From: Dehalococcoidia bacterium
Lineage (GTDB): Bacteria > Chloroflexota > Dehalococcoidia > UBA6926
Direction of reading: 5' to 3'
Length of the DNA stretch: 64,000 bases
NCBI GenBank assembly: GCA_965207895.1
Contig: CBDBNN010000001.1
Location: forward strand, 182,312 to 246,311
In this document: positions 29,703-64,000 of the stretch, one piece after another
Position numbering within the stretch: position 1 is the first letter of the stretch
Layout: each line of letters opens with the position of its first letter
Made by a program: the position numbers and the translations under genes
The notes under the pieces: generated by a model
Told to the model about the DNA's origin: nothing
What the model saw: the letters and a program-made list of their open reading frames with translations, nothing else
The model's database searches: none

Positions 29703-29723
29703 TGCTTTCTCCTTCCTGCCCGC

Positions 29724-31156: not shown

Positions 31157-31159
31157 GGG

Positions 31160-36558: not shown

Positions 36559-36781
36559 GGGAATCCGCAGCATGGACGGCCCAGACGGAGCCGCACACGA
36601 GACGAAGGCTTGCTGGCTGACGGAGCTTCGCACTCTCAAGCAGACATCCAGGGCGTTTGCCGGAACCCAAGCCCCCGGTGGGGCGTAGTGCGTCTTCTGT
36701 AGACCGCCCCAGGCGGGGCAGCGCAGCGCACTTGGGTTCCGGCGGCGTCCTAGGGTCACCAAGCATCAGGAGGACGACACC

Positions 36782-37039: not shown

Positions 37040-37563
37040 CGGATTCTTGCCCACAGCCGGAGCATCCCGCCGACGCTAACCGCCGCCAGCGTGGCCACAA
37101 TCAGGCCCGTCTTCACCACGGTGAACACGGCGGCCAGCCAGGTCAGCGGAGAAGGCTCACCGTCGTAGCTCAGGGCCAGCGCAGCGATGGTCGTATTCTC
37201 CAGCACATCCGCAAGGGCGAGGGCCAGCGGCAGCAGATACAGCGGCGCTCCGCCTCGAAAGAGCCGGAACAGCAGGACGGCGAACAGCAGGCCGTACGAG
37301 GCCGGAAAGAGCATGTCGACGGTGAGCGCGGTGGTCGCATAGACGACCCGTGCGCTGGCGTCGAGCCGGTCCAGGGCGTCGAAGAGGGCCGCCGCCTCTG
37401 CGGGTGTGTACCAGCCCCGACCGTCGAGCAGGTCCAGTCCTCCCAGCCGCGCCTGCCGCCAGGCGAGTCCCGCCACACAACCGACGGCGCCAACAAAGGC
37501 TGCGACCGTCATTCGCCAGGTTGCGAGTCGCTCCACCATCCTGCCCATCTGCAATGCCTTCAC
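37027..37563 (-). CDS. Hypothetical polytopic membrane protein
   Basis: 178 aa with four or five hydrophobic helices. Confidence 0.5.
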   Translation of the reverse strand: MKALQMGRMVERLATWRMTVAAFVGAVGCVAGLAWRQARLGGLDLLDGRGWYTPAEAAALFDALDRLDASARVVYATTALTVDMLFPASYGLLFAVLLFRLFRGGAPLYLLPLALALADVLENTTIAALALSYDGEPSPLTWLAAVFTVVKTGLIVATLAAVSVGGMLRLWARIRQSR

Positions 37564-37685
37564 CTCCGGTAGACCGGGCGCCTCCTCAGGACCTGCCCAT
37601 CACCCGCCCCGTGGGGCAGAGGAAGGGGGCCTGCGACATTGCCGCAGGCCCCCTTGCATCCTCTTGCCGGTCCGGCCGGGCCGGA

Positions 37686-40600: not shown

Positions 40601-43600
40601 CGCTGGCGTCGACGGTGACCGTGACCGATCCGTCGGGCTCGTCCACCTCGTCGTTGGTGGTGGCCACCGTCAGCGTGGCGTAGCCCGCTGCCGGGATGGT
40701 CACCGTCCGATGTTCCATGGATATCCCGGAGTCGTCGCTCTGCGACACCGTGACGCTCACGTCCAGGTCCGCAGCCGGGGCCGGGTTGGCGCTGACCGTG
40801 AAGGTCGCGTCCCCGCCCTCGGTCACGTTGCCGTCGGCGGTCACGCTGATCAGCGGCACGGACGTGTTGGGCGCGGGCGTCTCGAAGTCCACCGTGAAGG
40901 TCTTCGGCGTCGCGCCGGCGGCCAGGGTCCGCACGGTGATCTTGTCCAGCTGGGTCGTCCCATGAAGGACGGAGACCACGTAGTGCGACTGCGGATTAAG
41001 GCCGGTGAGCTGGTGCTCGGTGGCGGTGGTCGTGACTTCCGTCAGGACCGGGACGCCCGTGAAGCTCTCGTGCCAGACGACCAGGTAGGACGCGCCGTCC
41101 CCCTGCGGCTTCCAGGCGACGGTCGCCGTGGTGTCGGAGACGCGCTTGAGCTGCACCGGCGGAGGCGGCGGGAGGTCGTTGTTGGCGATATAGACCGAGG
41201 CGTAGCTCCTGAACCTGTTCAGCCGGTAGCCCTCGCCGAACTGCACCGTCGCGCCGAGCATCCCGTTGGAGCCCCAACCGGTGTCGTCGACGGTGGGGAT
41301 GGTGAACGAGACGCTGCCGCCGGTGGGCACGTTGACCGTGCGCTCGCCCAGGTGCTGGGCGGCGACCACGGAGCCGGGGCCGGCCACGCCCACCCTGACG
41401 TCCAGCGGCGCGTCGGGCGCGGGGTTCACGGTGACCGTGTAGACCGCGTCCTCGCCCTCGGTGATGGTGCCGCCGGCGGCGCTGATCGACACCTCGGGCA
41501 CCCGCTCCACGATCACCGACGTGGGCTCCGCCTCCACGGGCGAGCCCGCCGCAAGCGTGGTGAAGCGGATCACCGGGCTGGCGGTGCTCAGCTGCGTCGC
41601 GCCGTGGTCCTGGTAGTAGACCACCGCCCGGTACTCGGTGTCCGGCTCCAGGTGGCGGATGTTCCAGGCCGGGTCGTTGGGCTCGGCCCCGAACCAGGCC
41701 TCGTCGGCCGGGACGCCGGGGAAGGGCGAGGTGGTGGACCAGTAGCGCACCTCGTAGCCCTCGGCGCCGACCACCTGCGGCCAGCTCAGGTCGATGCCCG
41801 TGTCGGACAGGTTGGCGTAGGTCAAATCGCCCACGCGCTCCACCACCGGGTCGGGCAGGTCGCCCAGCAGCCGCTGGCAGCCCACGCAGGAGCCCAGCGT
41901 GCGGTGGAAGCTGAAGCTGTCGGTGCGCACCGTCTTCGGCGGCGTCTCCGTGGAGATCTGGTTGTCGCTGCGCTCGTACAGCTTGTAGCCCTCGACCTGG
42001 AAGGTCACGTTGCCGACCACGTTGGCGCCGACGTGGATGTCGACCTGGACCGGCGTGCGGCCGACCGTGACCGAGCCGGCGCTGACGGCAGAGTCAGTTC
42101 TGAAGGTGTGCAGGTGCGAGGCGGCGGGGCTGGTGAACCAGACCCGGTGGGACCGGAAGTACTCCGACGTGCCGCTCCGCAACAGCGGCTTGGCGAAGTC
42201 GGCGCTGATGGAGAAGCGCTTGTCCTGGTCCGCCGGCGGGTCGTTCTTCGTCCGCACCCAGAAGTAGTGCGCCTTGCGCCCCGTGTTCAGCGAGGCCGGG
42301 AAGGCCAGATTGAGCCCGCCGTCCTCGATGGACGTCCAGGTGGTCCCGTCGTCGATGGAGAACTCCAGGGTCTGCTCCCACTCGTCGTCGTCCCTGATGA
42401 TGAGCGGCACCTGCACCTCGGGGTAGTCGAAGCCTTCCACCTGGTACAGCACGCCATTTTCATAGAAGTTGTGGCCGACGGCGTGGGGCCGGTGGATCAG
42501 GAACGTCCCGTGGTCGAAGGCGTCGCTGTCCTGGCCCGCGGCGAGGCTCACCGGACGCCACTTGTTGGCGTCGCTCTCGTAGACGGACTGCGACGAGAAG
42601 GGGCAGCCGTCGTGCCGGTCCAGCAGCGGGCCGGCGGTGCTGCCGTAGCCGAAATGAATCCCATCCCGGCCAAGCCCTTCGACGATGGGGTCGCCCAGGT
42701 TGTAGGGGCTTCTACTCCCGGTGTGGCACATCAGCCGGTCCCGGTCCGGTTTGCCCGGCCCGATGTAGCCGCCGTGGTGGCTGAGCGGCTCACCCACCTG
42801 GCTGGCGACGTAGAAGTGCCGGCGCTCGTGGGGGTCCACCGCCTGCCACTGGTAGGTCACCGCCGGGCCGCCCTCCGTCAGCGTGATGGTGGGCGGCGGG
42901 TCGTGCCTGTTGTAGTTGGCGATCACCCAGCCCGTGTCGCAGTCGTTGCCCGAGATCGTGCCCGCGCAGGTGCGGAACTGCACGAAGGCGTCGGCGGCCC
43001 CCAGGTTCAGGCCGATCTTGAGCGCCTCGGAGTGGGTGCTCCAGGAGACGGCGGGGTTGGGGTAGAGCGACCAGGAACTGTGGCCGTCGCCGATGCTCCA
43101 GCCCTCGGGCAGGCGCAGGCCCCGCAGGCGCTCGGAGTTCGACGCGGTGGCGCGAAGGGTGTACGTGCTGTTGGGCTGCACGGACGCGTCGTATACATAC
43201 ACCCAGTAGGTGGTGTTCGGCTCCAGCCGCAGCCCCGAACCGTCGTTGCCCTGGTAGGTGAAGGTGAAGGTCCGGTCGGCGCTGCCCACCGGCATGGAGG
43301 GGCGCGCCAGATCGGCCAGGACGTCGGCGGCGGTACTGCCCGGCGAGCCGCCGGAGCCGGCCCAGATCTGTACCCTCAGATCACGGGCGGCGTCGGAGTC
43401 GCCGATCTCGGCAAACTCGACGTCGACGCTGTTGAGGCGGTAGTGGCCGCCGTTCTTGCCCGTCGTGAACGACTGCGCGCGGTCACGTACGGTACTGGCA
43501 GCCGTCACGGTCAACGCCGCGCCGTCCGCCTGGCCCAGGTTGCTCATCACCGCCGGCTCACCGGGCGGCGCGTTCACCGGCGTGGGCTCCACCCGGAACA

Positions 43601-46445
43601 GGGGCGAGATGCCGTAGAAGGCGTGGTCCTGGGTGCTGGCGATGGTGTTGTAGCTGATGGGGCCGGTGTCCGCGTCGGTGGTCGAGAACCGTCCGCGCCG
43701 GGCGTTGCTGGCGCCCAGAGGGTTCGCCTCCTTCGCACCGTCGGTGCGGGTGCCGGTCCACGGCCAGTCGTTCGAGGTGCTCCTCTCGCCGCTCTCGAAG
43801 CGCCGGTCCGCCATCGCCCAGTTCTCCCAGGTGTCGGACCAGAAGCCGGCGTTGTTCGCCGCGACCCGCTCGCCGTTCAGCCACCAGACCTCCGCGTCCG
43901 TGTGCCCGGCGTTGTTGGGGTTGGTCCGGGTGTGGTCCCGGGCGTCCACCGCGGCGGTGGAGCCCACCACCCGGAAGTGATCGGCGTAGCGCCGGACGGC
44001 GGCGTGCCCGTCGCGGGCCGCCTCCCGCACGTGGGCGTCGTAGACGCCGATGTCGGCGGCGGTGGCGTCGCGGTGGTCTTCGGTCATGAACAGCAGCCGG
44101 AACGTCTCGCCCGCGCCCAGACCGAGCGGCTTCAGCGGCCAGTCCAGGGGCACGGTGTAGGAACCGTCCGCGTGGGGCAGCAGCCGGCCGTTGACTCCCA
44201 TCGACAGAGTGGAGCCGCCGACCAGGGTGATCCAGTTGCCGCCCCCCTGCGCGCGGATGCGAGCGTCGTTGTTGATGCTCCAGCCGGGCGCGGCGCCCTC
44301 GTCCTCGGAGTTGCTCTGCGTGAACTTCACCTGGCTGTTGCCTTCCGTGAGTCCGGCTGCGTCCAGCACGACCCAGTAGCGGGTGTCCGCCTCGAGCGCG
44401 ACGCCCGGGTGCGTGAAGCGGTACGTGCCGGCCTGCCGGTTCACGAAGGCGGGATTGGTCAGGGTCCCCACGACCGTGCCGGGAGCCCCGTTGGCACCTT
44501 TGTGGACGGTGACCGTCAGCTTGGAGCCGAAGTCCTCGGTGGACCGCCTGAAGGCCACGTCCACGCTGGTCAGGGTGTACCCCGAGGGGTTGCCGCCGGT
44601 GTCGAAACCCTGCGCCAGGTCCACGTGCAGGCCCTGCACCAGGCCGCTCGACTGGCCGGTGTTCTTCACCAGCGCCGGGTCGTCGTCCCGCACCCGGACC
44701 GTCGCCGTCCCCAGCGACGTGGCCAGGTCGTAGTCCGACCCGTCCACCAGCGTCACCGTGACCGAGCCGTGGGCTTCGTCCACGTCGTCGTTGGTGGTGG
44801 CGATCTCCAGCGTCGCCGACCCGCTGGCCGGAATGGTGACGCTGGTGGGCAGGGTCCCGTACCCGAAGTCCCCGGTCGTGGTCACCGTGACGCTCACCGG
44901 CAGGTCTGCCGGGGGCGCCGGGACCGCCGTCAGCGTGAAGCTGGCGCTGACGCCCTCGGTGACGGCGCCGCCGCCAAGGATGCTCACCCGCGACGGCCGC
45001 AGCTTGTTGCTCACCTGCACGGAGAAGCCGTTGGACGTCGCGTGCGGGTCCGCGCCGCCGCCGACATTGGTGCCGAGGCTGGAGGCGTCGAAGGCGGCGT
45101 TCGAGCCGAGCGCGATGGTGTAGGTCTCCGTGCTCTCCGTCGCGCCGTCGACCACCGGCGTCAGCTCCAGCGTCGCCGTCCGCGCGCCCGCGCCCGAGAA
45201 GCGCACCGTCGGCGTCGCCGTGCTCGTGCCCGAAAGCGTCACGCCGGCGTTGAGGCTCGTGCCGGTCTTCTTCGCAAGGCTCCAGTCGGAGGTGGTCACG
45301 CCCGTGCCGCCGATCGACAGCGGCACGTCGATGGTCTCGCCCGCAATCAGCGCGCGGCCCAAGGTCACCGTGAACTCCACCGTCCCGCCCTCCGACACCG
45401 CGCCGCTGCCGACGCGGGCGAGGGTGACGACCGTGGGGTCGTCGTCGTGGAGGGTGTAGGTGAAGCTATTGGCGCTGGTGTCGATGGAAACCCCGGCGGG
45501 GAGCGGATTGTCCGGATCCTCAGAGAGAGTCACCGAGATGACTTCGTTGGGCACGTCCCCGACACTGCCGACAGCAAAGCCACTAATGCCCCTCTCCGTG
45601 CTACCTGCTGAGACTGTTAGATCTGCGCAACCGTTTTCATCCAGTGTCAAAACTGTGTTTTGCAAATGCTCAAACTCGAGGCCAAGGGTTGGGCGGTTGC
45701 TTGTGATACATACTCTGAAGTAGGTAGCAGTTGCCAGGGCCGATGAGACTTCCACCCGAAAACTTCCAGCAGCTGCACCTGCACTTAATTCTTGTGTCAT
45801 CTGCGGGGTAGATAGTTCTACAGACATTGTTGCGGTCTTCACCACGCCACCGAGGCTGATTTTCGGGGTTGGCGTGTTGGTGAACCATGAGCCTGTCATA
45901 GCATGCGCTCTATACACCAAGCCGTTACCGATGCTCCAGCCGGCGAGGGCTCCGCTATCTTCGTTGTTCGAATTCGTGGCGCGAATACCCGACGTGGCGA
46001 GGTTACGGCTGAGATCCAACACAAGGAAGTATGTGGTGTTCGCCGACAGGTCTATGCCGGTGCTCGTGAAGGTCAGCGTCTGGTCCGAGCTGGAGACGGG
46101 AAAGCTGGCGGGCTTGGTCAGGGTCCCCAGCGAGCTGCCCGGAGACCCGCTGGATTCGGTGTGGATGGTGGCGGTGAGGTCCGAAGAGCTGAAGCTGCTG
46201 TGGATAATGCCAAATTCCACTCCGACGCTGGTCAGGCTGTAGCCCGCGGCGTTGCTGCCGGTGGTGAACGCCACGGCGTAATCGTTGCCAAGAGCTTGAT
46301 TGAATCCGTCTGCCTGACCGAGGTTGCTGACGAAGGTCTGCGTCGCCTGCTGCGCAGAGGCTGTTTCAGACCCTCCAGACAGCAGCACGAACAGCGCCGC
46401 CGCCAGCAGGGTCAACGTGAGGAAGGTTCTGGCGGGGCGCCTCAT
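37686..46445 (-). CDS. Giant secreted adhesin-like protein (2919 aa): signal peptide, three SNLGQxDG-type domains, FN3 domains and about 8 Calx-beta-like domains
   Basis: The ATG at 46445 gives MRRPARTFLTLTLLAAALFVLLSGGSETASA. FN3-like segments (YEVRYWS..., VAWKPQGDGASYLVVW...). Repeated about 109-aa units TEGGDATFTVTASPAPxxNLxVSVTVSQSGDYGA...TDDxxDETDGSVTATV. The C-terminal domain DYQYTEGELVFAPGVTELTAEVWLEYDDDEEPDEYFVVEAYL is a Calx-beta hallmark. Confidence 0.85.
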   Translation of the reverse strand: MRRPARTFLTLTLLAAALFVLLSGGSETASAQQATQTFVSNLGQADGFNQALGNDYAVAFTTGSNAAGYSLTSVGVEFGIIHSSFSSSDLTATIHTESSGSPGSSLGTLTKPASFPVSSSDQTLTFTSTGIDLSANTTYFLVLDLSRNLATSGIRATNSNNEDSGALAGWSIGNGLVYRAHAMTGSWFTNTPTPKISLGGVVKTATMSVELSTPQMTQELSAGAAAGSFRVEVSSALATATYFRVCITSNRPTLGLEFEHLQNTVLTLDENGCADLTVSAGSTERGISGFAVGSVGDVPNEVISVTLSEDPDNPLPAGVSIDTSANSFTYTLHDDDPTVVTLARVGSGAVSEGGTVEFTVTLGRALIAGETIDVPLSIGGTGVTTSDWSLAKKTGTSLNAGVTLSGTSTATPTVRFSGAGARTATLELTPVVDGATESTETYTIALGSNAAFDASSLGTNVGGGADPHATSNGFSVQVSNKLRPSRVSILGGGAVTEGVSASFTLTAVPAPPADLPVSVTVTTTGDFGYGTLPTSVTIPASGSATLEIATTNDDVDEAHGSVTVTLVDGSDYDLATSLGTATVRVRDDDPALVKNTGQSSGLVQGLHVDLAQGFDTGGNPSGYTLTSVDVAFRRSTEDFGSKLTVTVHKGANGAPGTVVGTLTNPAFVNRQAGTYRFTHPGVALEADTRYWVVLDAAGLTEGNSQVKFTQSNSEDEGAAPGWSINNDARIRAQGGGNWITLVGGSTLSMGVNGRLLPHADGSYTVPLDWPLKPLGLGAGETFRLLFMTEDHRDATAADIGVYDAHVREAARDGHAAVRRYADHFRVVGSTAAVDARDHTRTNPNNAGHTDAEVWWLNGERVAANNAGFWSDTWENWAMADRRFESGERSTSNDWPWTGTRTDGAKEANPLGASNARRGRFSTTDADTGPISYNTIASTQDHAFYGISPLFRVEPTPVNAPPGEPAVMSNLGQADGAALTVTAASTVRDRAQSFTTGKNGGHYRLNSVDVEFAEIGDSDAARDLRVQIWAGSGGSPGSTAADVLADLARPSMPVGSADRTFTFTYQGNDGSGLRLEPNTTYWVYVYDASVQPNSTYTLRATASNSERLRGLRLPEGWSIGDGHSSWSLYPNPAVSWSTHSEALKIGLNLGAADAFVQFRTCAGTISGNDCDTGWVIANYNRHDPPPTITLTEGGPAVTYQWQAVDPHERRHFYVASQVGEPLSHHGGYIGPGKPDRDRLMCHTGSRSPYNLGDPIVEGLGRDGIHFGYGSTAGPLLDRHDGCPFSSQSVYESDANKWRPVSLAAGQDSDAFDHGTFLIHRPHAVGHNFYENGVLYQVEGFDYPEVQVPLIIRDDDEWEQTLEFSIDDGTTWTSIEDGGLNLAFPASLNTGRKAHYFWVRTKNDPPADQDKRFSISADFAKPLLRSGTSEYFRSHRVWFTSPAASHLHTFRTDSAVSAGSVTVGRTPVQVDIHVGANVVGNVTFQVEGYKLYERSDNQISTETPPKTVRTDSFSFHRTLGSCVGCQRLLGDLPDPVVERVGDLTYANLSDTGIDLSWPQVVGAEGYEVRYWSTTSPFPGVPADEAWFGAEPNDPAWNIRHLEPDTEYRAVVYYQDHGATQLSTASPVIRFTTLAAGSPVEAEPTSVIVERVPEVSISAAGGTITEGEDAVYTVTVNPAPDAPLDVRVGVAGPGSVVAAQHLGERTVNVPTGGSVSFTIPTVDDTGWGSNGMLGATVQFGEGYRLNRFRSYASVYIANNDLPPPPPVQLKRVSDTTATVAWKPQGDGASYLVVWHESFTGVPVLTEVTTTATEHQLTGLNPQSHYVVSVLHGTTQLDKITVRTLAAGATPKTFTVDFETPAPNTSVPLISVTADGNVTEGGDATFTVSANPAPAADLDVSVTVSQSDDSGISMEHRTVTIPAAGYATLTVATTNDEVDEPDGSVTVTVDASANLDYRVSSSQGTAVVVVSDDDGGYTVNQGTIARVKELASQTQHGAAHVNRWNRVLLAFGEHDGTGVTGGPMTAAEAQDMADNHSSPVWDLVVVELTALEAAAAQTPPPPTPEVSVTAGSGVTEGGDAVFTVTASPAPTANLDVSVTVSQSGDYGATTGQRTVTIPTTGSVTITVGTTDDSTDETDGSVTATVNAGSGYTVSSSQGAATVAVSDNDDASTPVVSVTGGGGITEGGDVTFTVTASPAPASNLAVSLTVSQSGDYGATTGQRTVTIPTSGSATVTITTTDDDVDETDGSVTLTVNAGSGYTVSSSQGAATVGVADNDDPVVEEQTGYTVDPDVIAKVRELASQTQHGTAHVNRWNRVLLAFGEHDGAGVTGGPMTASEAQEMANRHSSPVWDEVVTELTALEAAAAQTPPPPTPEVSVTAGSGITEGGDATFTVTASPAPASNLDVSVTVSQSGDYGAATGKRTVTIPTTGSVTLTVGTTDDTTDETDGSVTATVNAGSGYTVSSSQGAATVAVADNDAAPTPEVSVTAGSGITEGGDATFTVTASPAPTANLDVSVTVSQSGDYGATTGRRTVTIPTTGSVTLTVGTTDDDADETDGSVTATVNAGSGYTVSSTQGAATVGVADNDDAPTPVVSVTAGSGVTEGGDATFTVTASPAPASNLAVSVTVSQSGDYGATTGQRTVTIPTTGSVTLTIGTTDDTTDETDGSVTATVNAGSGYTVSSTQGAATVAVSDNDDAPTPVVSVTAGSGVTEGGDAIFTVTASPAPAANLAVSVTVSQSGDYGATTGQRTVTVPTTGSVTLTVGTTDDDADETDGSVTATVNAGSGYTVSSSQGAATVGVADNDDAAPEVEITVTVEAASAVEGDVLEFRVRLSEASTEEIRIRWNTAPAYHLLDDRAHMTDYQYTEGELVFAPGVTELTAEVWLEYDDDEEPDEYFVVEAYLPGTLYPPDAVGTMTIIDDD
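38040..40850. repeat. Near-identical tandem coding repeats (about 327-bp unit x6-7) plus a duplicated about 260-bp insert inside the adhesin gene
   Basis: Protein-level repeats are more than 90% identical. The second repeat family (GYTVxPDVIAKVRELASQTQHG.AHVNRWNRVLLAFGEHDG...AAAAQTPPPP) occurs at about 39345-39614 and 40269-40523. Confidence 0.7.
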
Positions 46446-46468
46446 GAGAGAGAACCCCCACGAAATGC

Positions 46469-46478
46469 GGGGGGGGGG
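46469..46478. repeat. Homopolymeric G10 (C10 on the coding strand) 24-33 nt upstream of the adhesin start codon
   Basis: Sequence ...atgcGGGGGGGGGGtgaagc. On the minus strand this reads CCCCCCCCCC-gcatttcgt-GGGGG-ttctctctc-ATG. Confidence 0.6.
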
Positions 46479-46748
46479 TGAAGCTCCGCAGCGCATCAGT
46501 CATGTCGTCGAACCTCCTGTGTCGCCCGACTTATGCCGCGACGCCGTGCGGGCGCTGGATCAGTAGTATTTCTAGCTCATGTCAATATGTGTCGCAAACG
46601 ACCAGCAGATATCATCCGCCAATCTGGGGTTCGTTGTCAATGGGGTCCGGGTTGGATTGGGGACGGAAAGGGAGGGCGGAGCGCAGCAACATACCGTGTG
46701 GGGACTGGCGGACAAGGGCGACTTGGCGAGACCCCTCGGAGGCAGTCG

Positions 46749-47123
46749 TTACTGTGGCGTAGCCTGGATGAGGACGCGTCCGCCTCGCTGGACCCGGATA
46801 TTCAGGTCGTGGCCATCCAGCAGCCTCATGCCGACCAGTGGAGTGGAATCGGCGGCGCTGGCCCTGGTGTTCCGCAGGCTGTCGTCCCACAGCACGGCGA
46901 CGTCATAGACATCGAAGAAAGCTTCGCTACCGTCGGCCAGAATTGCACGGCTTCGGTCCCGATAGGCCAAGCCCAACTCCCTCACCAGGTCTGAGGGCAG
47001 GGTCAGGAAGCCATTGTATCCCGTGTCTATTACGGCTTTGACTTCCCGTGACCGGCCCGTCGGCCCTTGCACTGTAAGGCCGACGACGGCTTCGTAGGCG
47101 GTGTTCACCGTTCCATGGATCAC
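46749..47123 (-). CDS. Retropepsin-like (clan AA) aspartic protease
   Basis: AVIDTGYNGFLTLP is the D-T/S-G active-site context. 124 aa. The start overlaps the upstream gene stop by 4 nt. Confidence 0.65.
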   Translation of the reverse strand: MIHGTVNTAYEAVVGLTVQGPTGRSREVKAVIDTGYNGFLTLPSDLVRELGLAYRDRSRAILADGSEAFFDVYDVAVLWDDSLRNTRASAADSTPLVGMRLLDGHDLNIRVQRGGRVLIQATPQ

Positions 47124-47437
47124 TCAGTCCTCCGCAGCGATCCGCCCCCAAAGCTGTAGAGCGCCCTATAGCCGACCCGCAGGCACCAAACGTCATAGGC
47201 GTCGGGCCGCTGGGATTGCAGCCGGTCCGTAGCGGCAATCTCGTCCGCTCCAATAGCCCAGCTTCCGCTCTCCACATCTATGGCGACGACCTCTCCAACA
47301 TGGTCCTCCTCGACCTGCCGCCGGATGTCTCGCTCGTATATCTGGTCGCCCAACCGCGCCGTCTCTTCTTTAGGACGGCTCGGCGGTGTCGTGGGCTTGG
47401 CGCGCTGGCTGGGTACCGAAGTCTCTGCGTCTCTCAT
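47120..47437 (-). CDS. Small conserved partner protein of clan-AA protease (DUF-type, tentative)
   Basis: The ATG at 47437 follows GGGAGGAGG. Carries a ...VVAIDVESGSWAIGADEIAATDRL...PDAYDVWCLRVGYRALYSFGG motif. Translationally coupled to the protease gene. Confidence 0.55.
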   Translation of the reverse strand: MRDAETSVPSQRAKPTTPPSRPKEETARLGDQIYERDIRRQVEEDHVGEVVAIDVESGSWAIGADEIAATDRLQSQRPDAYDVWCLRVGYRALYSFGGGSLRRTE

Positions 47438-47693
47438 GCCTCCTCCCTTCAATGAGCGTTCCCTCGTTCCTAATTCTACCACTCTGCGGGAGATCCGGAC
47501 AGCCAGAAGGGGCGGTGCCACAGGGGAAGACAGACCAACCAGCTATGGCCTATACTGCGAGCCTACAGACTTCCCAGTCGCATCTCGAAAACGGTTCTGC
47601 CTACCGTCAAAATAGGCCCACCAGAATCGGCAAGTTCTTGATCCAATTGTGCGTCACCGTTTGAACCACCTGTGTAACCACTAGGAGGGTGAC

Positions 47694-48617
47694 ATGACTG
47701 CTCTTGTCCGTCAGTTCAGATTCTTCCTAAGAGATGAAGTCAACCCAAATATTGACAGGGTGCGCAGGCTGCGCTCAGGCATTAGAGGAGTTAGAGATCA
47801 CCTGCACAGAAATCTTGATGGTTTTCAAGGTATCGCTCGACAGGGCTCATTGGGCTTGGACACTTTAATCAAGCCCGTCCGGGAAGATGACGAGTACGAC
47901 GCTGATGTTCAAGTCGTCATGAACCCACAGGCCAATTGGAATCCGAGGCAATACTTGGATGCTGTATTTGAAACACTGTCGACGAGCCTAGACTATCAAG
48001 ACAAACTGGAATGCAACACACGGAGCGTGACCATCAAGTTTGCCGGGCACTTCAGTATGGATGTCGTTCCGCGTATCACCCAAGATGGCCAGCACCAAGT
48101 CTGCAATCGCAGAGATAACAGATTTGAATCAACCGATGGTATGGGCTATCACAACTGGTTCCACGAGAAGAGCAAGTTGACCAACGTCAACCTCAAGCGT
48201 GCCGTCCGGCTGTTAAAGTACATCCGCGATCGTGAGAGCAATTACAAAGCTCCGTCCATATTGCTTACAACCTTGGCGGCAAACGCCATACAGTCTGGTG
48301 ATCGTGGCAGAGACTCTGTAAAGTCAGTCGCAAGCACATTGACCACGATCCTTACAAGGATGGACAGCTATTTGCAGGGGCTCCCACGAAAACCCGCCGT
48401 CAGGAATCCTGTACTACGCTCCGAGACGTTCGACCGCCATTGGAATGATGTCCAGTTTGCGATATACAGGGAGAACATTCACCGATATGCCGAGATTGCT
48501 ACAGGAGCCTTTGCCAGTTCTTCTGTCCCGGAATCAATTGATCGTTGGAGGAGGCTCTTCGGCGAAGGTTTTGGAGGGCATTACAAGGCACCGCCTCATA
48601 GTAAGCAAAGGGTTTAA
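47694..48617 (+). CDS. SMODS / CD-NTase-like nucleotidyltransferase
   Basis: AGGAGGG RBS. Carries the nucleotidyltransferase-fold motifs QGSLGLDT (GS) ... DDEYDADVQVV (h[DE]h) ... FSMDVVP (third acidic). 307 aa with a SMODS-like C-terminal helical region (RLLKYIRD..PSILLTTL). Confidence 0.6.
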   Translation: MTALVRQFRFFLRDEVNPNIDRVRRLRSGIRGVRDHLHRNLDGFQGIARQGSLGLDTLIKPVREDDEYDADVQVVMNPQANWNPRQYLDAVFETLSTSLDYQDKLECNTRSVTIKFAGHFSMDVVPRITQDGQHQVCNRRDNRFESTDGMGYHNWFHEKSKLTNVNLKRAVRLLKYIRDRESNYKAPSILLTTLAANAIQSGDRGRDSVKSVASTLTTILTRMDSYLQGLPRKPAVRNPVLRSETFDRHWNDVQFAIYRENIHRYAEIATGAFASSSVPESIDRWRRLFGEGFGGHYKAPPHSKQRV

Positions 48618-48660
48618 GCAACGTCCCGAGGATGAATCTGAGCCCTCGGTGGCGTCACTT

Positions 48661-49575
48661 TCACCAATGCCGTCGCCGACGAAGGCGTGCGGCTGAGTAC
48701 GAAAGTCTGATGGAACCAATAGCGAAACGGCTGCGGCGGGCACGCAGCACTGGGGACGGGAGATCTCCGTAATTCCGCAGAAAACGCGCTAGCGGCTCTG
48801 AGACTACGCTGCTGAACACAACGCCGACCATGACAGCAAGCACCACAGACCAATCGTCGCCACCCGGAATTGCCCGGGGTACCCATATAGCAAGAACCAT
48901 CATCGGAGAGAACAGGAACAGCATTCCAAAACTCTCCATAAGCGGGCCGAGTGTAGGATGCTTAGGCCATATTTCAACGCCTTTGAACAGCACCCACACC
49001 AATAAAGTCCATGACGCGAGCAGGGCGGACACGGCAGTCAACGGAATGAGGGTGTAATGCAACTCCCATCCGCCCATGAGCCCTGGAAGAACCCAATACA
49101 TCATCAACAGGATTCCCGCCGGCACCATGCCGATTGCCAATATCCTCTTACTTCGTATTAGTATCCAAAATATGAACAACCATGGAGCGGACACTATAAT
49201 CACGACTATGTTGATCCCCAACTCATGGAAGTCGTACGTGTTGCTAATCGCCAAGAGCGTGAAGAGTCCCAGGAAAAAGGCGATTCCAGCTTGCCACGGA
49301 TCCACTTGCCACCAATTGAGCGGTGGGACTCCATCTTCTTGCTGCATCGCCTGGTAGAACGCCACGAAAGGAAGAACCGCAAGAAGAAGATTCATCACAA
49401 CGCTGTCATACATCCTGTCTACGTAGTCAAACCCCCAAATGAAGTAGGTCGCTATCGCCAGACTAAGTAACGCAATCAGGAAGTTGACTGTGACTCCCTT
49501 ACGGAGGTCCTTCAATGGGTAATGGCGGGCTTTTGAGCTCACGTCTCGAGCACGACGCATCAGGGATCGCATCAA
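48661..49575 (-). CDS. Polytopic membrane protein (about 8 TM), hypothetical
   Basis: 304 aa and highly hydrophobic. Convergent with the NTase gene across a 44-nt gap. Confidence 0.55.
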   Translation of the reverse strand: MMRSLMRRARDVSSKARHYPLKDLRKGVTVNFLIALLSLAIATYFIWGFDYVDRMYDSVVMNLLLAVLPFVAFYQAMQQEDGVPPLNWWQVDPWQAGIAFFLGLFTLLAISNTYDFHELGINIVVIIVSAPWLFIFWILIRSKRILAIGMVPAGILLMMYWVLPGLMGGWELHYTLIPLTAVSALLASWTLLVWVLFKGVEIWPKHPTLGPLMESFGMLFLFSPMMVLAIWVPRAIPGGDDWSVVLAVMVGVVFSSVVSEPLARFLRNYGDLPSPVLRARRSRFAIGSIRLSYSAARLRRRRHW

Positions 49576-49615
49576 TCCAAAGAGGGAGGCAGGGTATCGG
49601 TGAAAAGTTCTCAGG

Positions 49616-56587: not shown

Positions 56588-57727
56588 TCAGTAGATTCCG
56601 GGCATAATGCGCCATTTGACGCGGGACTTGTATTCGGCCCATTTCTCGGCGCCATACTTCTCCTCGCAGTGCGTCTCATCGCTGCGCTGCCGCCACGTGA
56701 AGAATGACACGACGAAGACGAAGTACGCCCACGCCCAGGGGTTCAGGAAGTGGCCAAATGAGAGGCCGACGGCAAAGGACAGGAACCCCTCACCCATGTA
56801 GTTGAAGTGGCGGGCCACGCCCCAGAGGCCCGTGTAGAGTATCTTACGATCGCCCGCCTGGATGTACTTCGGTTCGATAATCCCGAGGAACTTGCGATCC
56901 GGCCACCTTTTAAAGGTGTATTTCTGGAGGTTGGCACCGCGTCCGATGCTCCAGCCCAGCAGGAAGAGCGCCGTGGAGCCGATGAGCCAAACATAGGTCC
57001 AGAAATCGGAGAAGCCGGGGTGCGGGTGCGCGGCCATCCCCCACAGCGGCAGGATGAAGACCCAGCCGTAGATGACGATGCCGCCCCAGAACATCTTGAA
57101 TCCCATCCGTTCATAGATCAGATCGTAGGTGTAGAGCTGGACGCGCTCCCAGATGAAGTAGTCAAAGACGTAGAACGTGAAGAACGCGGCATAAAGGAAG
57201 ACGCCGGGGTTGAAATCGCTTCCAAATTGGTCGTAGTGCCACGCTGCGCCAGACATGGCGTTGAGCGATAACATGGTTCCGCCGACAACGTAGAAATACA
57301 TCTTGATATCGACGCGCTCGCCAAAGAGGGATATCTCCTGCGCCCGACCTTCCCATAGCGCAAGCAGTGGGTTCTTTATGTCTCCCTGTGGCTGGCTGTA
57401 GACCGCCGCGATGGACATGATGAGAGTGAAGACGGTGCCGCCGGCGATCGCATATAAGGAAGATCGATAGAACCAGTCACGCGGCATGCCTGTAATCTCA
57501 GTCGCCCAGATTGCGACGGCAACGAGGAAAACGAGGATGCCGTTCAGTCGGTAGTTGCGTGGCTGGCCGGTTTCCGGGTTGATGACGTACCCGGGTACTT
57601 TTCTGCCGGGCAGAATCAACTGAGCTAAGAGGAAGGCGGCAAAGATGGCAAGGGGCGTGAAGAACCCCGCAATCGCCTCGGCGCCTGAAAGCTCGAAGAG
57701 GTGCTCGATACCAAGCCATTCAATCAT
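56588..57727 (-). CDS. Sterol reductase family protein (ERG4/ERG24 / 7-dehydrocholesterol reductase-like)
   Basis: C-terminal LYTGLWGVARHFNYMGEGF ... WRQRSDETHCEEKYGAEKWAEYKSRVKWRIMPGIY matches the sterol-reductase C-terminal signature. Polytopic. The start is the ATG at 57727 after GGAGAGAGGGG. Confidence 0.7.
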   Translation of the reverse strand: MIEWLGIEHLFELSGAEAIAGFFTPLAIFAAFLLAQLILPGRKVPGYVINPETGQPRNYRLNGILVFLVAVAIWATEITGMPRDWFYRSSLYAIAGGTVFTLIMSIAAVYSQPQGDIKNPLLALWEGRAQEISLFGERVDIKMYFYVVGGTMLSLNAMSGAAWHYDQFGSDFNPGVFLYAAFFTFYVFDYFIWERVQLYTYDLIYERMGFKMFWGGIVIYGWVFILPLWGMAAHPHPGFSDFWTYVWLIGSTALFLLGWSIGRGANLQKYTFKRWPDRKFLGIIEPKYIQAGDRKILYTGLWGVARHFNYMGEGFLSFAVGLSFGHFLNPWAWAYFVFVVSFFTWRQRSDETHCEEKYGAEKWAEYKSRVKWRIMPGIY

Positions 57728-58020
57728 GACGGAATACCCCTCTCTCCGATGACGAGGCAATTATGGATTCAGGCTTGGTGGAAATTCAAGAAGGCGATTC
57801 CGTATCTCAACAGGATGGCGGTTTCCAGGGACCAGCGGTGCCCTACAGAATCAAGAAAATCATCGTCCGCTCCAAATAGCACGTATCCTTTCTCAAAGTA
57901 AGCGGGGAGGATGAGCCCTGTGGCAACGCCGCCTGAGTCATTCAGTAAACGCCATCGGGCACAAAGGCAGCGAGGACTCTAGTGCATTTGTCGCCGACGA
58001 AGCTGCGCATATTACGCAGC

Positions 58021-61000
58021 ATGGGGCTGCTGCTCTTGCTGGCAGCATCCATCGCCGGTTTCATGATGCTCATCGACTTGCTCGCGGATACAACGCCGCA
58101 GGACGCGCCTGATCTTCTCGCAGAGGCCGACTCCGAGGCGGATGTCATCAGCCTGCCCAATTCTGCCTCCCTGTTCGCCATCGGCCTTGCAACGATGGCA
58201 ATTATTGTCTCTCTGGCAGTTGTGGCAGCGCCCTCGAATTGGCGCCGCTCAGAGAACGGATTGCCCCGTCCACGTTGGATCTCATTGGGCATCGCCGCGA
58301 TTATTGCTCTCATCATCGCGGCGGCCGGATTGTTTCTGGCTTTCGCAGATGCATCACCTCTTTTCCAGGAGCAGACTGGCGCGGGCGAAGTAACCAGCAG
58401 CCATGAGGTCAACACCAACTGGGTCGCGCCGGCCGGCGTCGCCTTGCTGGCTGCCTTCTTCTTTACCGTCATCCTGATTGGTTTCCTCAGGCCGCGACTC
58501 GTTTTGCCGGTTCTCGCAATCTGGCTGGCCGCAAGCCTCTTCTTTGGATTCTTTAGTTCCAGCGCAATCGCGGGTCTGAGCCTGTTTGATCCCCTGGTCA
58601 GCATCAAAGTGCCGGGTGCCTTCGCCGAAGAGGTTGCCGGGCATCGGACGGTGGCGATTCAACCGGGTTCCGAAGGCGATGGTATACCAGGGCCAGGCGA
58701 CGCCTCGTCTGACCCTAACGATATTCCCGGCAATGGCGTTCTGGAAGATTCTGCTGCAAACGGCGTTAGTGGACTTGATGATGTTGGTCAGGCCGCCCCG
58801 GGAGAAATCTCGGAAGAGGCGGTTATTGCGAGGCTGGAAGGCGCGGGGGACCCCGCTGACCGCGCGAACGCCGCACAAAAACTGGCCGAATTTCGCTCCG
58901 ATGACGCGTTGCGATCTCTTGCACACGCTGGGCTATATGACCCGTCCCAGCTCGTACGCGACAAGGCAATCGACGCCATTACGGAATGGGACTTTGAGAC
59001 GCTTGTCGAGATATTGCAGGAGCACCCGGAGTCTAATGTCCGGCGCGCCGCAGCAGCAGCCCTTGGACGACTGAATGACAGTCGCGCCGTCGAACCGCTC
59101 GCCACAGCCCTGCTAACGGATGAGGCCGCAGAGGTTCGGCAGGAATCCGCCAAAGCCCTCCGCAAGCTCCGCGACCCGGAAGCCGTGAGCCCCCTCATCC
59201 AGGCCCTCTTGCGAGACGAAAATCCATCCGTCAGAACCGAGGCGGCGACTGCGCTCGGCGCGCTGGAAGATGAACGTGCGGTACAGGCTCTCCTCGAAAC
59301 ATTGCAGGGCGATACATCCGCGCTCGCGCGGGAGGCGGGCGCCGAAGCGCTGGGGCGCCTTCGCGGCTCTAACCCGCTAGCCGAACTCGACACTGCACGG
59401 GTGGATGACTTCTCGGCGGGCGTGCGCGAGGAGGCCGCACTGGCCCTCCAACGCTACACGATCCCTGAATTGATAGACGCGCTGCATAACGCGTCGGCTG
59501 CTGACGACCGCGCAGTCGCCGCGAGGCTGCTCGGCGAGAGAAGAACTCCCACAGCGATACCGGAACTCATCCTCGCCCTCAGTGACCCTGAGGGAATCGT
59601 CCGCGAGGCGGCGGCTGGGGCGCTGGGCAATTTCGGCAATATGCAGATGCTGGAGAACGGCAGCTCCGTCCTATCACACGGTGGCAACGAGTACATCATT
59701 CCGGGAACAACAACCAGGCAATCATCCGGTCTCCCTCACGTGCCCATGTTCAGATTCACAAACCAGGCCCACCTGGATTTCCTTCGTACAGCCGTCGGCG
59801 ATGTTTATAGTGGCGATGGCTGGCTGGACAGTAATATTCAAGCACTTCCCTATGAGGCCCATGAACCCATTGAGGAGATCGACGCGTCGGGCAGCCCTCT
59901 CACCTGGGTCTCATCCATGCCGGAAAATACCGTGTACTACCACCCACCGGCCGGCAAGATCTACCTTCCCCGCGGCATTTTCCCGATCGGCTATGTCACG
60001 CGTACTGCAGACGTGGACGGCATATATCGTCCCGGCAGCTCAACCTTCCTCATGCGGGAAAGGCAAAGTTATGTCACAGCCAACGTGACGCCAGCGGTCT
60101 ATGACGACTCAGTTCTGCAGTCTGCCGTTGCGGAGCAGAGCTTGAGCGTTACGTTTCCGGATTCCGTCCCCGATCGCGTTCACGATCTGGCCGCCCGCAT
60201 CACCGCAGGCCACACATCGGCATACGCCAAAGCCAAGGCAATTGAGCAATACCTGGCGACCACCTATGAGTATCGGCTGGCAGACGAGGATACCGTTCCC
60301 ATTCCAAGGGGGCACGATCCCGTTGACTGGTTCCTGTTTGAGAGTCGTGAGGGAACGTGCGGTCAATTCAGCAGCGCCTTTGTTGTGCTCGCACAGTCAA
60401 TCGGCCTCCCTGCTCGCGTGGTTTCCGGCTTCGCGATTACTCCTACCTCAGATGAACAGCTCGTCTTTGCCGACCAGGCGCACCAGCGGGCTGAAATCGC
60501 ATTTGATGGGCTTGGATGGGTTGCTTTCGAACCGACACCGGCTGAGGAGGGCGCGCCAGGCCGCGCTTCCGGTTACTTTGCATCAGGAGAATCGTCTCCA
60601 CGCTCCGCACAAGCGGAGCTTCAGCGTTTGGCGGAACAACTGTCCAGCGACAATCCCGCCGACGTACAGGACGCTCAACGCGCCATTGAGGAACTAGGCG
60701 GGAGTGTCGAGACTCTAGAGAATGGGAGCATTCTCGTAGAGGGTGAAGGTGGCGCCCAGGGCACAGCCCCAAGCACGACGGCAGATCAAGCGTATGACTT
60801 ACCCCAGTCCGCAGTGTTCACGGTTACTGGAGCGCAAGAAACCGGATACCTGGTGACGACAACCGGCGACATCTATACCGGCGACGGATGGCGTCGATTA
60901 GACCCGGTGATCGTCGACTATACCAGATCCGAATCCGTTCCCGAGCTGGTTCGCGATTCAATTGAAGAAGGCCGGGAACCGTGGGGCGATCTGCCGGAAT

Positions 61001-63990
61001 CTCGAATGGAACCGATTCTCCTGGCCCCGGGCGAAAAAGACTTCGATAACGGCGCAAGCATAAGGCTGCGTGTTGCCCCAATTGACGATTCCGGCAGAAT
61101 CCCCGCCGGAGTGGTGCCGGTTTCCCGCCACGTCAACAGCGTGGGGCTTGACGGGTCATACCGGCCCTTCAGCGGCACCTTTGAGATGGATGAGCCGGTG
61201 CTGGGCTACGAATGGTGGTCGATACTCCCGCGCCCGAGTGAGAGAGACCTCAACAGGGCTGGGATTATCGAAGACCCAACATACACCCAGTTGCCGGATG
61301 ACCTTGATGAACGCATACATGATCTCGCCCGACGCATTACGTCAGGGTACGGGACGCCATACGCCAAGGCCCGCGCCATCGAGAGTTACCTCCGCAGCAA
61401 CTACAAGTACGTACTGGGTAAAGACTCAAACAAGCCTCGGCGCCCGGCAGGGTTTGAGGCAGTAGAGTGGTTCCTCTTTGAGACAAGGGAAGGAACGTGC
61501 GGTCAATTCAGCAGCGCGTTCACCGTCCTGGCACGGTCGGCAGGGCTGGCGGCACGGGTCGTGTCCGGCTGGATGATTACACCTACCCCCAATACACAGA
61601 CGGTCTACTCCGATCAGGGTCATCAATGGGCTGAAGTCGCTTTTGAAGGCATTGGCTGGATTACGTTTGAGGCGACCGCATCAGGTGGAGCGCCAACACG
61701 TGTCAGATCCGATGGGCCACCTGATCGGCCGTTGTCGTCCGGCGGGAGTGGCGGGTCCGGCGGGAGTGGCGGGTCCGGCGGGAGCGGCGGGTCCGGTGGG
61801 AGTGGCGGGTCCGGTGGGAGCGGCGGGTCCGGCGGGAGTGGCAGGAGTGGCCCCACGATCCTGGACACCGTTACTGACATCACGTCTTGGCCCCGGGAAA
61901 TCGAGCGTGGCAGACCATTCATCGTCGGTGGCACCGTGCGAACTGATGGCGGGGCCCCCGTTAGCGACATGGAAATAGAGATCTTTGTCAACGAGATCAA
62001 GGCCCAAGGAGGACTCCGTATTGGCACAGGAATGGTACGGAACGGTCGGTACACGGTTGAAGTTGAGATGCCGCCGTCCCTGGAGCGTGGCAATTACCAG
62101 CTCATTGCACACGCAATTGAGAACGAAAACTACTACGAATCGTGGAGCGACCCGGACATCGCCGTCTTCTCAAAGAGTGGCCTCATATTTTCCGGTCCTC
62201 AGCAGGTAAACGTCGGGACGGAGGCTGTTTTCAATGGCCAGGTAACGGAGGATAACGGGAGGGGCGTGCCGGGCATACCGGTGTCCGTCATCATCGATGG
62301 CCGCTCGTTCGCCCAGCGCACCACGGTAGAGGACGGCGGTTTCAGTTTCTCCAACACGTTCCTCCTGCCGGGCGAGCATTGGGCCGAGGTACGATTCCCC
62401 AATACGAATTTCCTCCGCGCCAACTCAGCCCGTCTGCACCTGGATGTGTTCATGCCCACCACGCTCACATTGGACGCGCCCGCGCAGGCGAGGGTGGATG
62501 AGCCGTTCACCATCTCTGGCAGTTTGGTTGACTGGCAGGAAACGCCACTAAACGGCAGCCAGGTAACGATTAACGTCGGCGAAAGTGGCAGCGCCACGGT
62601 CGTCGCAGGCGTTGACGGGTCATTCACGCATCAGGTCACCCTGCCCTCCTCAGGGCAGGTCGCCGTGACCGCAGCCTACGAAGGGACCGAGTCAGTGCTG
62701 CCCTCATCAGCATCGGCCAGCGTCATCGCGCGGGATGTGACCGTTCTGTCATTCGAAGGGCCGGGACAGGTCCTGTCCGGTGAGACGGCAGTCTTCCACG
62801 GCGCAGTCACATCTCCCACGAATGAGGAGCTTGAACCACTGACTGTTGAGATCGTCTTCGGCGGCGAGATCATAGCATCCATCGGGACGGGAGAGGACGG
62901 GGCGTTCTCCTACGACACCGGCAGGCTTGAGGAGACCGGCCAGCGAATGCTGACCGCGCGGGTGCCGGAACAGCGGTTCCTGACATCGAGCGCCACCACT
63001 ATCTCCTATTCCGTCGTGCACCCCACCGTCATCACCCTCGACGGTCCGTCAGTAGCTATGACCGGACAACACATCGAGTTCATCGGCACCCTCAGGCAGG
63101 TCGATGGCCAGTCGATTGCCAGTTCGTCGGTAGTCCTGGACGGCAACCCTGTAATCACCGCAGATGACGGCACATTCAACCATGTTGTCACGCTGCCTGA
63201 AATGCTGGACGGTGATGCCGTTGAAGAGCATATCCACATCGAATACGCGTTCGATGGGACGGACCATCTCGCAGCGGCGTCCGGCAGCCGATTAATCATC
63301 GTTGGCGTGCCGCGTCTCACAACTGAGCGCACTGCTCCAATCGCGCGCGGTGACGTTGCACTACTTCGCGGCGCGGCATTCACGGGAACGCGTCCGCTTC
63401 CCGGCGCAGCCATTTCCCTCACCGGCAGACAGTCCCATGAGACCGATCCGGCCGGCCAATTCCTGTTTGAATATCAGGTTTCTCCGGATACGCCGGTTGG
63501 TCCACTACGCTTGATTGCCTCGCTTGATGATCTGGGGGTTCAGGCTCCCATTGAACTGGATATACGCTCTGCAGTGCACTTGGTCGCAACGCCACTCGAT
63601 GACGTGCGGCCGGGCCACATCATAGGGATGCAGGTCGCTCTGTACGATGACACCGGCGCGGGTATCAGCGGCGCAAACGTCCAGACAAGCACCGGACTAA
63701 ATCTCTTCACCGATGAAATCGGCCATGCCATGTTTGAACTAACCGTGCCGGAGTCCGAAGCGCTACTCGCCGTCCCCATCACATTCACATTCAGCGGCGA
63801 TACCCAACACATGCCGCTCAATTACTTCCTTGGTATCCCCGTTAGTCCACCGCCCTTCAACTGGCTTTTGTGGGTCGTCTTCCCCGCGTTCCTGCTCCTT
63901 ATGGGCGCCGGCGGTTACGGGGCATATCGGCTGCGCGCCGCCGGTGTCCCGCTTGACCCGCGGGCTTGGTCTGCGGGCGTAATCCAAGTG
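58021..63990 (+). CDS. Giant membrane protein (>1990 aa, 3' truncated by window): N-terminal TM helices, PBS-lyase-type HEAT repeats, two transglutaminase-like domains, (GGS)n linker, Ig-like repeats, C-terminal TM
   Basis: Continuous open frame from 57949 to the window end, checked by hand. HEAT repeats (NVRRAAAAALGRLNDSRAVEPL...VRQESAKALRKL...PSVRTEAATALGAL). TGase cores (EGTCGQFSSAFVVLAQSIGLPARVVSG...HQRAEI and EGTCGQFSSAFTVLARSAGLAARVVSG...HQWAEV). An alternative start is the GTG at 57982 after GAGGA. Confidence 0.75.
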
Positions 63991-64000
63991 CCTGAAAGGC

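Follow-up and report, generated by a model that had tools for sequence, protein, structure and literature searches.

What bond, and in which lipid, is reduced by an ERG4/ERG24-type protein encoded in the genome of a Dehalococcoidia bacterium? The question is raised by a gene on the minus strand at 56588-57727 of a 64,000-nucleotide stretch (assembly GCA_965207895.1, contig CBDBNN010000001.1, positions 182,312 to 246,311 of the forward strand), which was analyzed as a whole and is called the window here. An initial annotation had described the product as an ERG4/ERG24-type sterol reductase homolog in a bacterial accessory region. We find that it belongs to a clade of bacterial proteins of about 379 amino acids (aa) that, judged from sequence, is a very strongly constrained paralogue distinct from the delta14-sterol reductase of the sterol gene cluster of sponge symbionts. 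The KO-based label 'delta14-sterol reductase' evidently lumps the two paralogues together. Our tentative proposal, held at somewhat less than even confidence, is that the clade consists of NADPH-dependent sterol C=C reductases whose target is some bond other than delta14, with a side-chain bond tied to sterol methyltransferase (SMT) chemistry as the most plausible candidate.

The open reading frame (ORF) listing gives one intact minus-strand frame at 56588..57760, which would encode 390 aa if translation started at an upstream TTG. Because most homologues are 379 aa long and have the same start, the shorter model, which begins at an internal ATG and has the N-terminus MIEWLG, is the right one:

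56588..57727, minus strand: coding sequence of the 379-aa ERG4/ERG24-family reductase (ATG at 57725-57727; stop codon, included, at 56588-56590)

Membership of the ERG4/ERG24 family is well founded. The C-terminal strings on which the initial annotation was based all occur in the translated sequence (LYTGLWGVARHFNYMGEGF at residues 297-315, EEKYG at 355-359 and, further C-terminal, KWAEY for W..Y), and the profile comparison that it proposed comes out on the same side: Pfam ERG4_ERG24 (PF01222) matches residues 28-379 over profile positions 77-432 with 119 bits (E=3e-34, cut-off 27), whereas DUF1295 is a weak secondary match of 28.5 bits to the C-terminal part only. No isoprenylcysteine carboxyl methyltransferase (ICMT) or steroid 5-alpha-reductase (SRD5A) profile was reported at E<=1 in the Pfam search, an NCBIfam search gave no match, and 'Ste14' is found solely among the automated IMG labels of distant relatives. 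The top PDB sequence match is 4QUV (E=6e-31), the delta14-sterol reductase MaSR1 of Methylotuvimicrobium alcaliphilum, which is 29-33% identical to the window reductase. An AlphaFold2 model built from 35 clade members (pLDDT 71.6, pTM 0.74; moderate confidence) was compared with the PDB by Foldseek, and 4QUV was again the sole significant match, over the whole chain (377 columns, TM 0.72, E=2e-14). The steroid 5-alpha-reductase PbSRD5A reached only TM 0.34 (E=3.6), and no ICMT structure, the kind of match that the initial annotation had named as a competitor, was among the fold matches of the model. These results support a predicted polytopic inner-membrane protein of the ERG4/ERG24 family with the MaSR1 fold.

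The putative active site resembles that of MaSR1 as well. When 87 clade sequences are aligned with MaSR1, Tyr186, Lys269, Asn309, Arg346 and Asp350 are invariant and correspond to MaSR1 Tyr241, Lys319, Asn359, Arg395 and Asp399, while the position of MaSR1 Asp363 is held by an equally invariant Glu313, a conservative change. Two studies based on the MaSR1 structure (PMC12489058, PMC4951196) predict that Tyr241 and Asp363 form the catalytic pair and name Asn359 and Arg395 as NADPH contacts; mutation of the residues of human LBR equivalent to these two contacts causes Greenberg dysplasia. By analogy, Tyr186 is a putative proton donor with Glu313 as its partner, and Lys269, Asn309, Arg346 and Asp350 are putative NADPH contacts. 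We considered the change from Asp363 to Glu as a marker separating the clade from C14 reductases (C14R), and rejected it, since the cluster-linked C14R-type proteins carry Glu at this position too. The two sterol-reductase signatures, which we take to be G..[LIVM][YH]D.[FYW].G..LNPR and [LIVM]2-H-R-x2-R-D-x3-C-x2-K-Y-G (PROSITE PS01017/PS01018), have fared differently. In the region of the first, the window reductase has W-E-G-R-A-Q-E-I-S where MaSR1 has F-M-G-T-A-L-N-P-R ('ALNPR' to 'AQEIS'), and Glu131 is invariant in the clade. The second is partly retained: R346, D350, C354 and K357-Y358-G359 are kept, including the C-terminal C..KYG of MaSR1, while its His (MaSR1 His394) gives way to Trp or Phe and the second Arg varies.

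Sterol-type genes of sponge symbionts have been described before. TM7SF2/ERG24, SMT, FDFT1, LSS and CYP51 are enriched in the symbionts of Ircinia, and an ERG24-CYP51-LSS cluster, which can have a flanking SMT, is conserved in 115 of 537 metagenome-assembled genomes (MAGs) from 10 phyla, with horizontal gene transfer (HGT) and low omega (Kelly et al. 2022, PMC9531527). The same paper mentions ERG24-FDFT1 'doublets'. Brown et al. (2023, PMC10070321) showed that bacterial SMTs of such clusters are functional, and their Supplementary Data 1 gives the order SMT, SMO-OSC fusion, ERG11, ERG24, sdmA, sdmB. The cluster ERG24 shares with the 379-aa clade the protein family, an occurrence in sponge-symbiont MAGs of many phyla, apparent HGT, strong purifying selection and the Glu at the Asp363 position, and could easily be taken for the same gene. 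However, three cluster sequences from Data File S1 of Kelly et al. proved to be of another kind. They are 343-366 aa long, are 71-74% identical among themselves, and retain both classical signatures (F.G.E.NP.. and H-R-x2-R-D-x3-C-x2-K-Y-G), whereas the window clade is mostly 379 aa long and has no signature 1. Compared with MaSR1 and with a plant delta14-reductase, the cluster proteins reach 221-234 and 216-223 bits, respectively; with the window reductase they reach just 113-122 bits (28-30% identity).

Trees separate the two in the same way. We added one cluster ERG24 to the family alignment and built neighbor-joining (NJ) trees from about 350 columns with 200 bootstraps and limited sampling, using a plant sequence (P0240), a Naegleria sequence (P0266) and MaSR1 as delta14 anchors. 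The anchors are monophyletic at 100% bootstrap (77% alone once the cluster ERG24 has been added), and the cluster ERG24 joins them at 100% and the 379-aa group at 0%. A node uniting the 379-aa clade with two other bacterial short clades has 99.5-100% support, and one that takes in a wider set of bacterial short forms has 93.5-94.5%. For a union of the 379-aa clade with the cluster type or with MaSR1 support is 0%, and for one between the wider set of short forms and the three C14R anchors it is 14.5%. The claim of membership in the sterol reductase family stands, while these trees and the comparison with the cluster ERG24 speak against an assignment as a canonical C14 reductase.

Gene context also differs, since MaSR1-type genes accompany CYP51 and an oxidosqualene cyclase (OSC), the cluster ERG24 lies beside CYP51 and the SMO-OSC fusion, and the clade gene does neither. 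The initial annotation had suggested looking for cyclase and demethylase genes. None was found in the window, and within 10 kb of the reductase none of 85 clade loci has an OSC (DCTAE motif) or a cluster-type CYP51, although both the DCTAE and the CYP51 heme motif are found in a real cluster of Kelly et al. The heme motif matched one ORF, a 415-aa frame at the edge of locus L033, which is a truncated GPP34-P450 (cluster c10) and not a cluster-type CYP51. What did come to light are hpnCDE-like squalene synthesis genes beside the reductase in sister genomes, a Dehalococcoidia arrangement that matches the published ERG24-FDFT1 doublets. Both kinds of reductase can occur in one genome. The Binatia MAG p16x34bins.64 is cluster-positive in Table S1 of Kelly et al., and there the neighbors of the 379-aa gene (L052) are unrelated and include no cyclase. 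The MAGs jk18x1bzbins.55 and jk18xAbins.46 have the 379-aa gene and are cluster-negative, a call weakened by MAG completeness of about 90%. Since the gene occurs in cluster-positive and cluster-negative MAGs, symbiont genomes can contain both paralogues or this one alone. Two candidates were rejected. A third clade of reductases (L089-L093, from Petrosia ficiformis and other metagenomes), considered as the cluster-linked type, has in L090 an upstream gene for a GMC-type FAD oxidoreductase rather than CYP51, and no cyclase; and the large ORFs after the reductase in the Nitrospirales locus L043, considered as CYP51 and OSC, encode a TonB receptor and glycyl-tRNA synthetase subunits.

How widespread is the clade, and how constrained? 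The closest relatives of the window reductase are from Dehalococcoidia (Chloroflexota) MAGs, at 93-98% aa identity. A word-indexed search of 5.8 billion proteins gave 980 matches, the best 120 of which are 376-389 aa long, nearly all 379, and 74-98% identical. A scan of species-representative genomes gave 514 matching stretches, of which the best 80 belong to Chloroflexota, Acidobacteriota, Dadabacteria (labelled Thermodesulfobacteriota), Nitrospirota, Verrucomicrobiota, Latescibacterota, Binatia and Gemmatimonadota, and Acidimicrobiia members come from the protein search; altogether the clade is at least 72% identical over about nine phyla. For the part of the clade whose sample can be read from record names, the source is always a sponge metagenome or MAG (Ircinia, ENGE20, ROBB21 and APA/IRC/RHO/COS bins). 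When HMMER was run over 1.84 billion representatives at 50% identity, the whole clade collapsed into one full-length representative, and the next full-length relatives were 46% and 39% identical, with all others at 33-39%. The clade has a long stem and a star-like shape in an NJ tree, with Chloroflexota basal and the other phyla intermixed. The gene family looks to have spread horizontally, a pattern consistent with the HGT inferred by Kelly et al. (PMC9531527). Against close relatives at dS 0.5-0.76, dN/dS is 0.018-0.045 (0.095 for the divergent 376-aa copy of L016), and between phyla the proteins are still about 75% identical at saturated synonymous sites. The reductase is under very strong purifying selection. 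Some Dehalococcoidia have two adjacent, diverged copies, in tandem in L064 (10001-12476) and on opposite strands in L081 (6618-8988).

In most clade loci the reductase gene is solitary among housekeeping genes, and the recurrent neighbors for a hydantoinase, a permease, an amidase, a CoA-transferase, a Na/H exchanger, DHODH and DinB were set aside as unrelated housekeeping genes. The only coherent recurrent neighborhood is one with a GPP34-P450 fusion, present at a distance of no more than 10 kb in 13 of the 85 loci (Dadabacteria and three Dehalococcoidia), for example:

L002, 7626-9644, minus strand: GPP34-P450 fusion, head-to-head with the 379-aa reductase
L096, 4724-6742, minus strand: GPP34-P450 fusion (also in L040, L081 and L082)

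These loci and two further JGI loci variously carry a Sterol_MT_C methyltransferase, a Rieske/KshA-type oxygenase and an FAD amine-oxidase-type protein, and the module also variously holds an MMPL transporter with a sterol-sensing domain and a TP_0789-like lipoprotein, in a gene order that is shuffled between phyla. An SMT is adjacent to the reductase in 10 of the 85 loci and in the two further JGI loci; in Dadabacteria, which are predicted to make steroids de novo (Hoshino & Gaucher 2021), the reductase is head-to-head with the GPP34-P450 and the SMT is on its other side. The fusion has been described as exclusive to sponge symbionts and proposed as a phagocytosis modulator in a paper that never mentions sterols (PMC11706023). 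Its likeness to CYP51 is weak, with 76 bits for CYP51 in the PDB, 73 for the next-best non-CYP51 P450 and 68 for CYP120 and CYP3A. In this neighborhood it may be a sterol-tailoring enzyme. On one Dadabacteria-type chromosome (L026/L027) the module of reductase, P450, SMT and transporter occurs twice, about 2.1 Mb apart.

The paralogous short clades adjoin genes for Rieske/KshA oxygenases, short-chain dehydrogenases/reductases (SDRs), DUF1295 proteins, sulfotransferases and sulfatases. In L094 (P0132), L043 (3564-7080) and L091 (6491-12859), short reductases or, in Nitrospirales, the 379-aa gene lie near DUF1214, a sulfotransferase and several SDRs, in surroundings that further hold Polyketide_cyc2, a Rieske/KshA-type oxygenase, DUF1295 and a sulfatase. 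Sponges are well known for their sterol sulfates, and a module for the sulfation and desulfation of sterols or steroids is one possible reading of these surroundings.

Based upon these observations, we propose that the window reductase would receive its lipid substrate from the membrane and NADPH in its C-terminal half, where, by analogy with MaSR1/ERG24, the cofactor would dock at Lys269, Asn309, Arg346 and Asp350. Tyr186, oriented by Glu313, would donate a proton to one carbon of the double bond, and C4 of the nicotinamide would pass a hydride to the other, so that the protonation and hydride-transfer chemistry would be that of MaSR1. That the substrate is a sterol, either self-made or host-derived, we infer; which bond is reduced is a guess. 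A bond other than delta14 is proposed because the clade is separate from the cluster delta14-reductase, is constrained, and usually stands alone. Candidates are the delta24(28), delta24(25) or delta25(27) bonds left by SMT chemistry. A precedent for a bacterial SMT paired with a side-chain reductase is the adjacency of ERG6 (SMT) and an ERG4 homologue in two non-sponge metagenomes (Brown et al. 2023 Supplementary Data 1, PMC10070321), where true ERG4 homologues come from lake and hot-spring samples. The window clade shares with ERG4 the protein family and the SMT adjacency, on which the functional analogy, a hypothesis, is based. It is also conceivable, though on balance unlikely, that the clade is a dedicated symbiosis enzyme, a non-delta14 (for example side-chain) reductase transferred horizontally among about nine sponge-dwelling phyla and acting with SMTs, GPP34-P450 fusions and sterol-sensing transporters in the completion or remodelling of alkylated sterols.

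Several points weigh against a side-chain sterol reductase. The clade and its nearest relatives are known as sequences alone, and the labelled anchors of the NJ trees, with their limited sampling, were all C14Rs. The canonical ..LNPR.. of signature 1 is replaced by xE[LI/M]S-type residues, so that substrate handling may differ, and the confidence of the structural model is moderate (pLDDT 71.6). The window's 64 kb contain no sterol gene and most clade loci are solitary; the sterol link of the window copy therefore rests on orthology with the clade. The nearest eukaryotic/myxobacterial group (chytrids, Monosiga, Corallochytrium, Aphanomyces, Polarella, Nannocystaceae and Polyangiaceae) has generic or automated names only, from which no function can be transferred, and the gene context of P0148 was uninformative for labelling it. 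Finally, the top PDB match of the GPP34-P450 is a CYP51, which would fit a pair of demethylase and delta14-reductase equally well. Could the clade, then, be a second delta14-reductase, as KO and IMG labels have it, either paired with a CYP51-like GPP34-P450 or as a redundant copy? We regard this as rather unlikely, though far from negligible. MaSR1, the only bacterial relative both solved and assayed, is a delta14-reductase, database sources name relatives 'delta14-sterol reductase', and the Dadabacteria arrangement of an SMT with a P450 whose top PDB matches are CYP51s resembles ERG24-CYP51-LSS with SMT (PMC9531527). Yet these labels come from automated annotation, a P450 is missing near the reductase in most loci, and the CYP51 likeness of that P450 is weak (76 bits against 73 and 68). 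Moreover, the clade is apart from all C14R anchors and from the cluster ERG24, with 0% bootstrap for a union, and its gene co-occurs with the sterol cluster in one MAG.

Two other readings seem improbable to us. In one, the enzyme would stand alone and remodel sterols of the sponge host at a ring bond, for example delta7 of delta5,7 sterols in the manner of DHCR7. The gene is indeed solitary among housekeeping genes in most phyla and is present in MAGs scored as lacking the cluster (L060, L073), but MAG incompleteness of about 8-10% weakens such calls. The sterol-sensing-domain transporters and lipoproteins of the module would suit an enzyme of this kind, but the sterol uptake that it would need is hypothetical. 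The squalene synthesis neighbors in sister genomes point instead to endogenous triterpenoids. Host-sterol-modifying reductases of intracellular bacteria offer a precedent, cited in PMC9666466 and PMC10070321: those of Coxiella burnetii and chlamydiae are, like the clade gene, isolated ERG4/ERG24-family genes of host-associated bacteria that have no full sterol pathway (PMC9666466), but they are described as close to eukaryotic K00223/K00213/K09828-type enzymes, whereas the nearest relatives of the clade are bacterial short forms. The other reading, to which we give similarly little credence, is a substrate that is not a sterol, such as squalene or hydroxysqualene derivatives, hopanoid-type triterpenoids, polyprenols or another isoprenoid or lipid. 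The closest relatives pair the reductase divergently with hpnCDE-like squalene genes and have no cyclase nearby, the clade lacks the canonical signature 1, and its nearest relatives have no assigned function. However, the only coherent recurrent neighborhood has a Sterol_MT_C methyltransferase and a sterol-sensing-domain transporter, and the wider group is found in lineages that make sterols (chytrids, choanoflagellates, oomycetes and myxobacteria). To our knowledge, all characterized ERG4/ERG24-family members act on sterols, which we count against this reading too.

Is the gene part of an accessory region, as the initial annotation had it? The first 1-17 kb of the window hold core genes (Trk, SufBD, DXR and a solute-binding protein), followed by tRNA-Met and tRNA-Val at 17.6-17.8 kb and then by an element with conjugation genes:

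17743..49615, no strand: genomic island resembling an integrative conjugative element (ICE); adjoins tRNA-Met/tRNA-Val, has conjugation genes and high GC, and ends where synteny starts
17762-19438, strand not stated: large serine recombinase, overlapping the end of tRNA-Val
21203-22864, strand not stated: relaxase-like protein, in the island
22861-25113, strand not stated: T4 coupling protein, in the island
25410-27806, strand not stated: VirB4/TraC-like ATPase, in the island
30176-31156, strand not stated: TrbL/VirB6, in the island

The GC content of the island is mostly 0.66-0.72 against about 0.59 for the backbone, and lower, 0.50-0.59, at its right end (46-49.6 kb), where no att-type repeat of the tRNA end of at least 14 nt was found. 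These features suggest that the element at 17.7-49.6 kb is ICE-like. Relatives align to the window only from 49614/49617 rightward, and the block 49617-64000 is syntenic with sister Dehalococcoidia (blastn, 79-86% identity with L001 and L005-L016). The reductase gene lies inside this block, 7 kb to the right of the island, and its GC of 0.57 is backbone-like. An accessory element is thus nearby, but the gene itself is outside it.

The island has several other unusual genes. A 385-aa protein (35401-36558, plus strand) has three separate HTH_3 (Xre-type) domains, an unusual architecture. The stretch 37350-46496, in which local GC reaches 0.73, holds a giant minus-strand ORF (about 2936 aa) that has an fn3 domain and a C-terminal Calx-beta; a fully open frame of nearly the same length (2753 aa) without Pfam match lies on the opposite strand (37350-45611), and the coding strand was judged from Pfam matches only. 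At the right end are a SMODS/DncV-like nucleotidyltransferase gene (47694-48617, plus strand), a signature of CBASS-type defence, and an adjoining 304-aa ORF without Pfam match (48661-49575, minus strand). GC is low over this pair (0.50-0.53, with 0.50 for the nucleotidyltransferase gene), which is absent from sister genomes.

In the syntenic block, the reductase gene is flanked as follows, with the domains of the four genes downstream of it assigned by Pfam:

49616-52612, minus strand: adenylation-thiolation-reductase protein, like a nonribosomal peptide synthetase and a carboxylate reductase
52725-53459, plus strand: SAM methyltransferase
53472-54635, minus strand: PfkB kinase
55074-56273, minus strand: collagen triple-helix-repeat protein of 399 aa with an N-terminal transmembrane or signal-like segment, directly downstream of the reductase
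57728..57948, no strand: divergent intergenic region between the reductase gene and a giant HEAT-transglutaminase gene, a weak feature
57949..64000, plus strand: giant ORF that continues past the window end (2017 aa or more), with HEAT/PBS-lyase repeats, two transglutaminase cores, CarboxypepD_reg and Big_3_5

The intergenic region has a purine-rich GGAGAGAGGGG stretch shortly 5' of the reductase ATG. A sigma70-like site (57789-57760, minus strand) lies just 5' of the ATG, and shuffled sequence also yields one such site. The four downstream neighbors recur in 14-15 sister loci, and a sterol link was found for none of them. The adenylation-thiolation-reductase gene accompanies the reductase in the window's subclade, and in L029, from a more distant member of the Dehalococcoidia, it lies directly downstream on the same strand (11730-14197), which hints at a functional link. 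The giant divergent ORF is present in the window and five relatives. An apparent ORF desert at 58-64 kb had been considered as an rRNA operon or pseudogenes, but Rfam found nothing, and the region is this one giant ORF. It includes a GXY-like repeat stretch (about 61640-61980) that gives PPDPPL repeats in an alternative frame; collagen-like and eukaryote-like repeat proteins are typical of host-associated bacteria. In seven other sister loci (six genomes, L001 and L005 being on one contig), its place is taken by YjbQ, two SQS_PSY genes and an amine oxidase, the hpnCDE-like squalene synthesis set, head-to-head with the reductase.

The enrichment of sterol-type genes in sponge symbionts was already published. 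The 379-aa clade is a separate paralogue that automated annotation conflates with the delta14-reductase. If the clade is an ordinary second delta14-reductase, the finding is routine. However, the sterol chemistry of bacteria in sponges matters directly for the debate over sponge biomarkers. SMTs of symbionts are able to form the 24-isopropyl side chain (Brown et al. 2023, PMC10070321), and SMT products retain a side-chain double bond, for which a bacterial partner reductase is still to be named. The clade reductase adjoins SMT-type genes in Dadabacteria and is among the most conserved genes of its neighborhood, and its context links to sterol metabolism the GPP34-P450 fusions, which until now have been seen solely as phagocytosis modulators. 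Were the clade a dedicated symbiosis enzyme, sponge-dwelling bacteria could make fully saturated 24-alkyl side chains like those that serve as 'sponge' biomarkers (precursors of 24-isopropylcholestane), or edit the sterols of their host.

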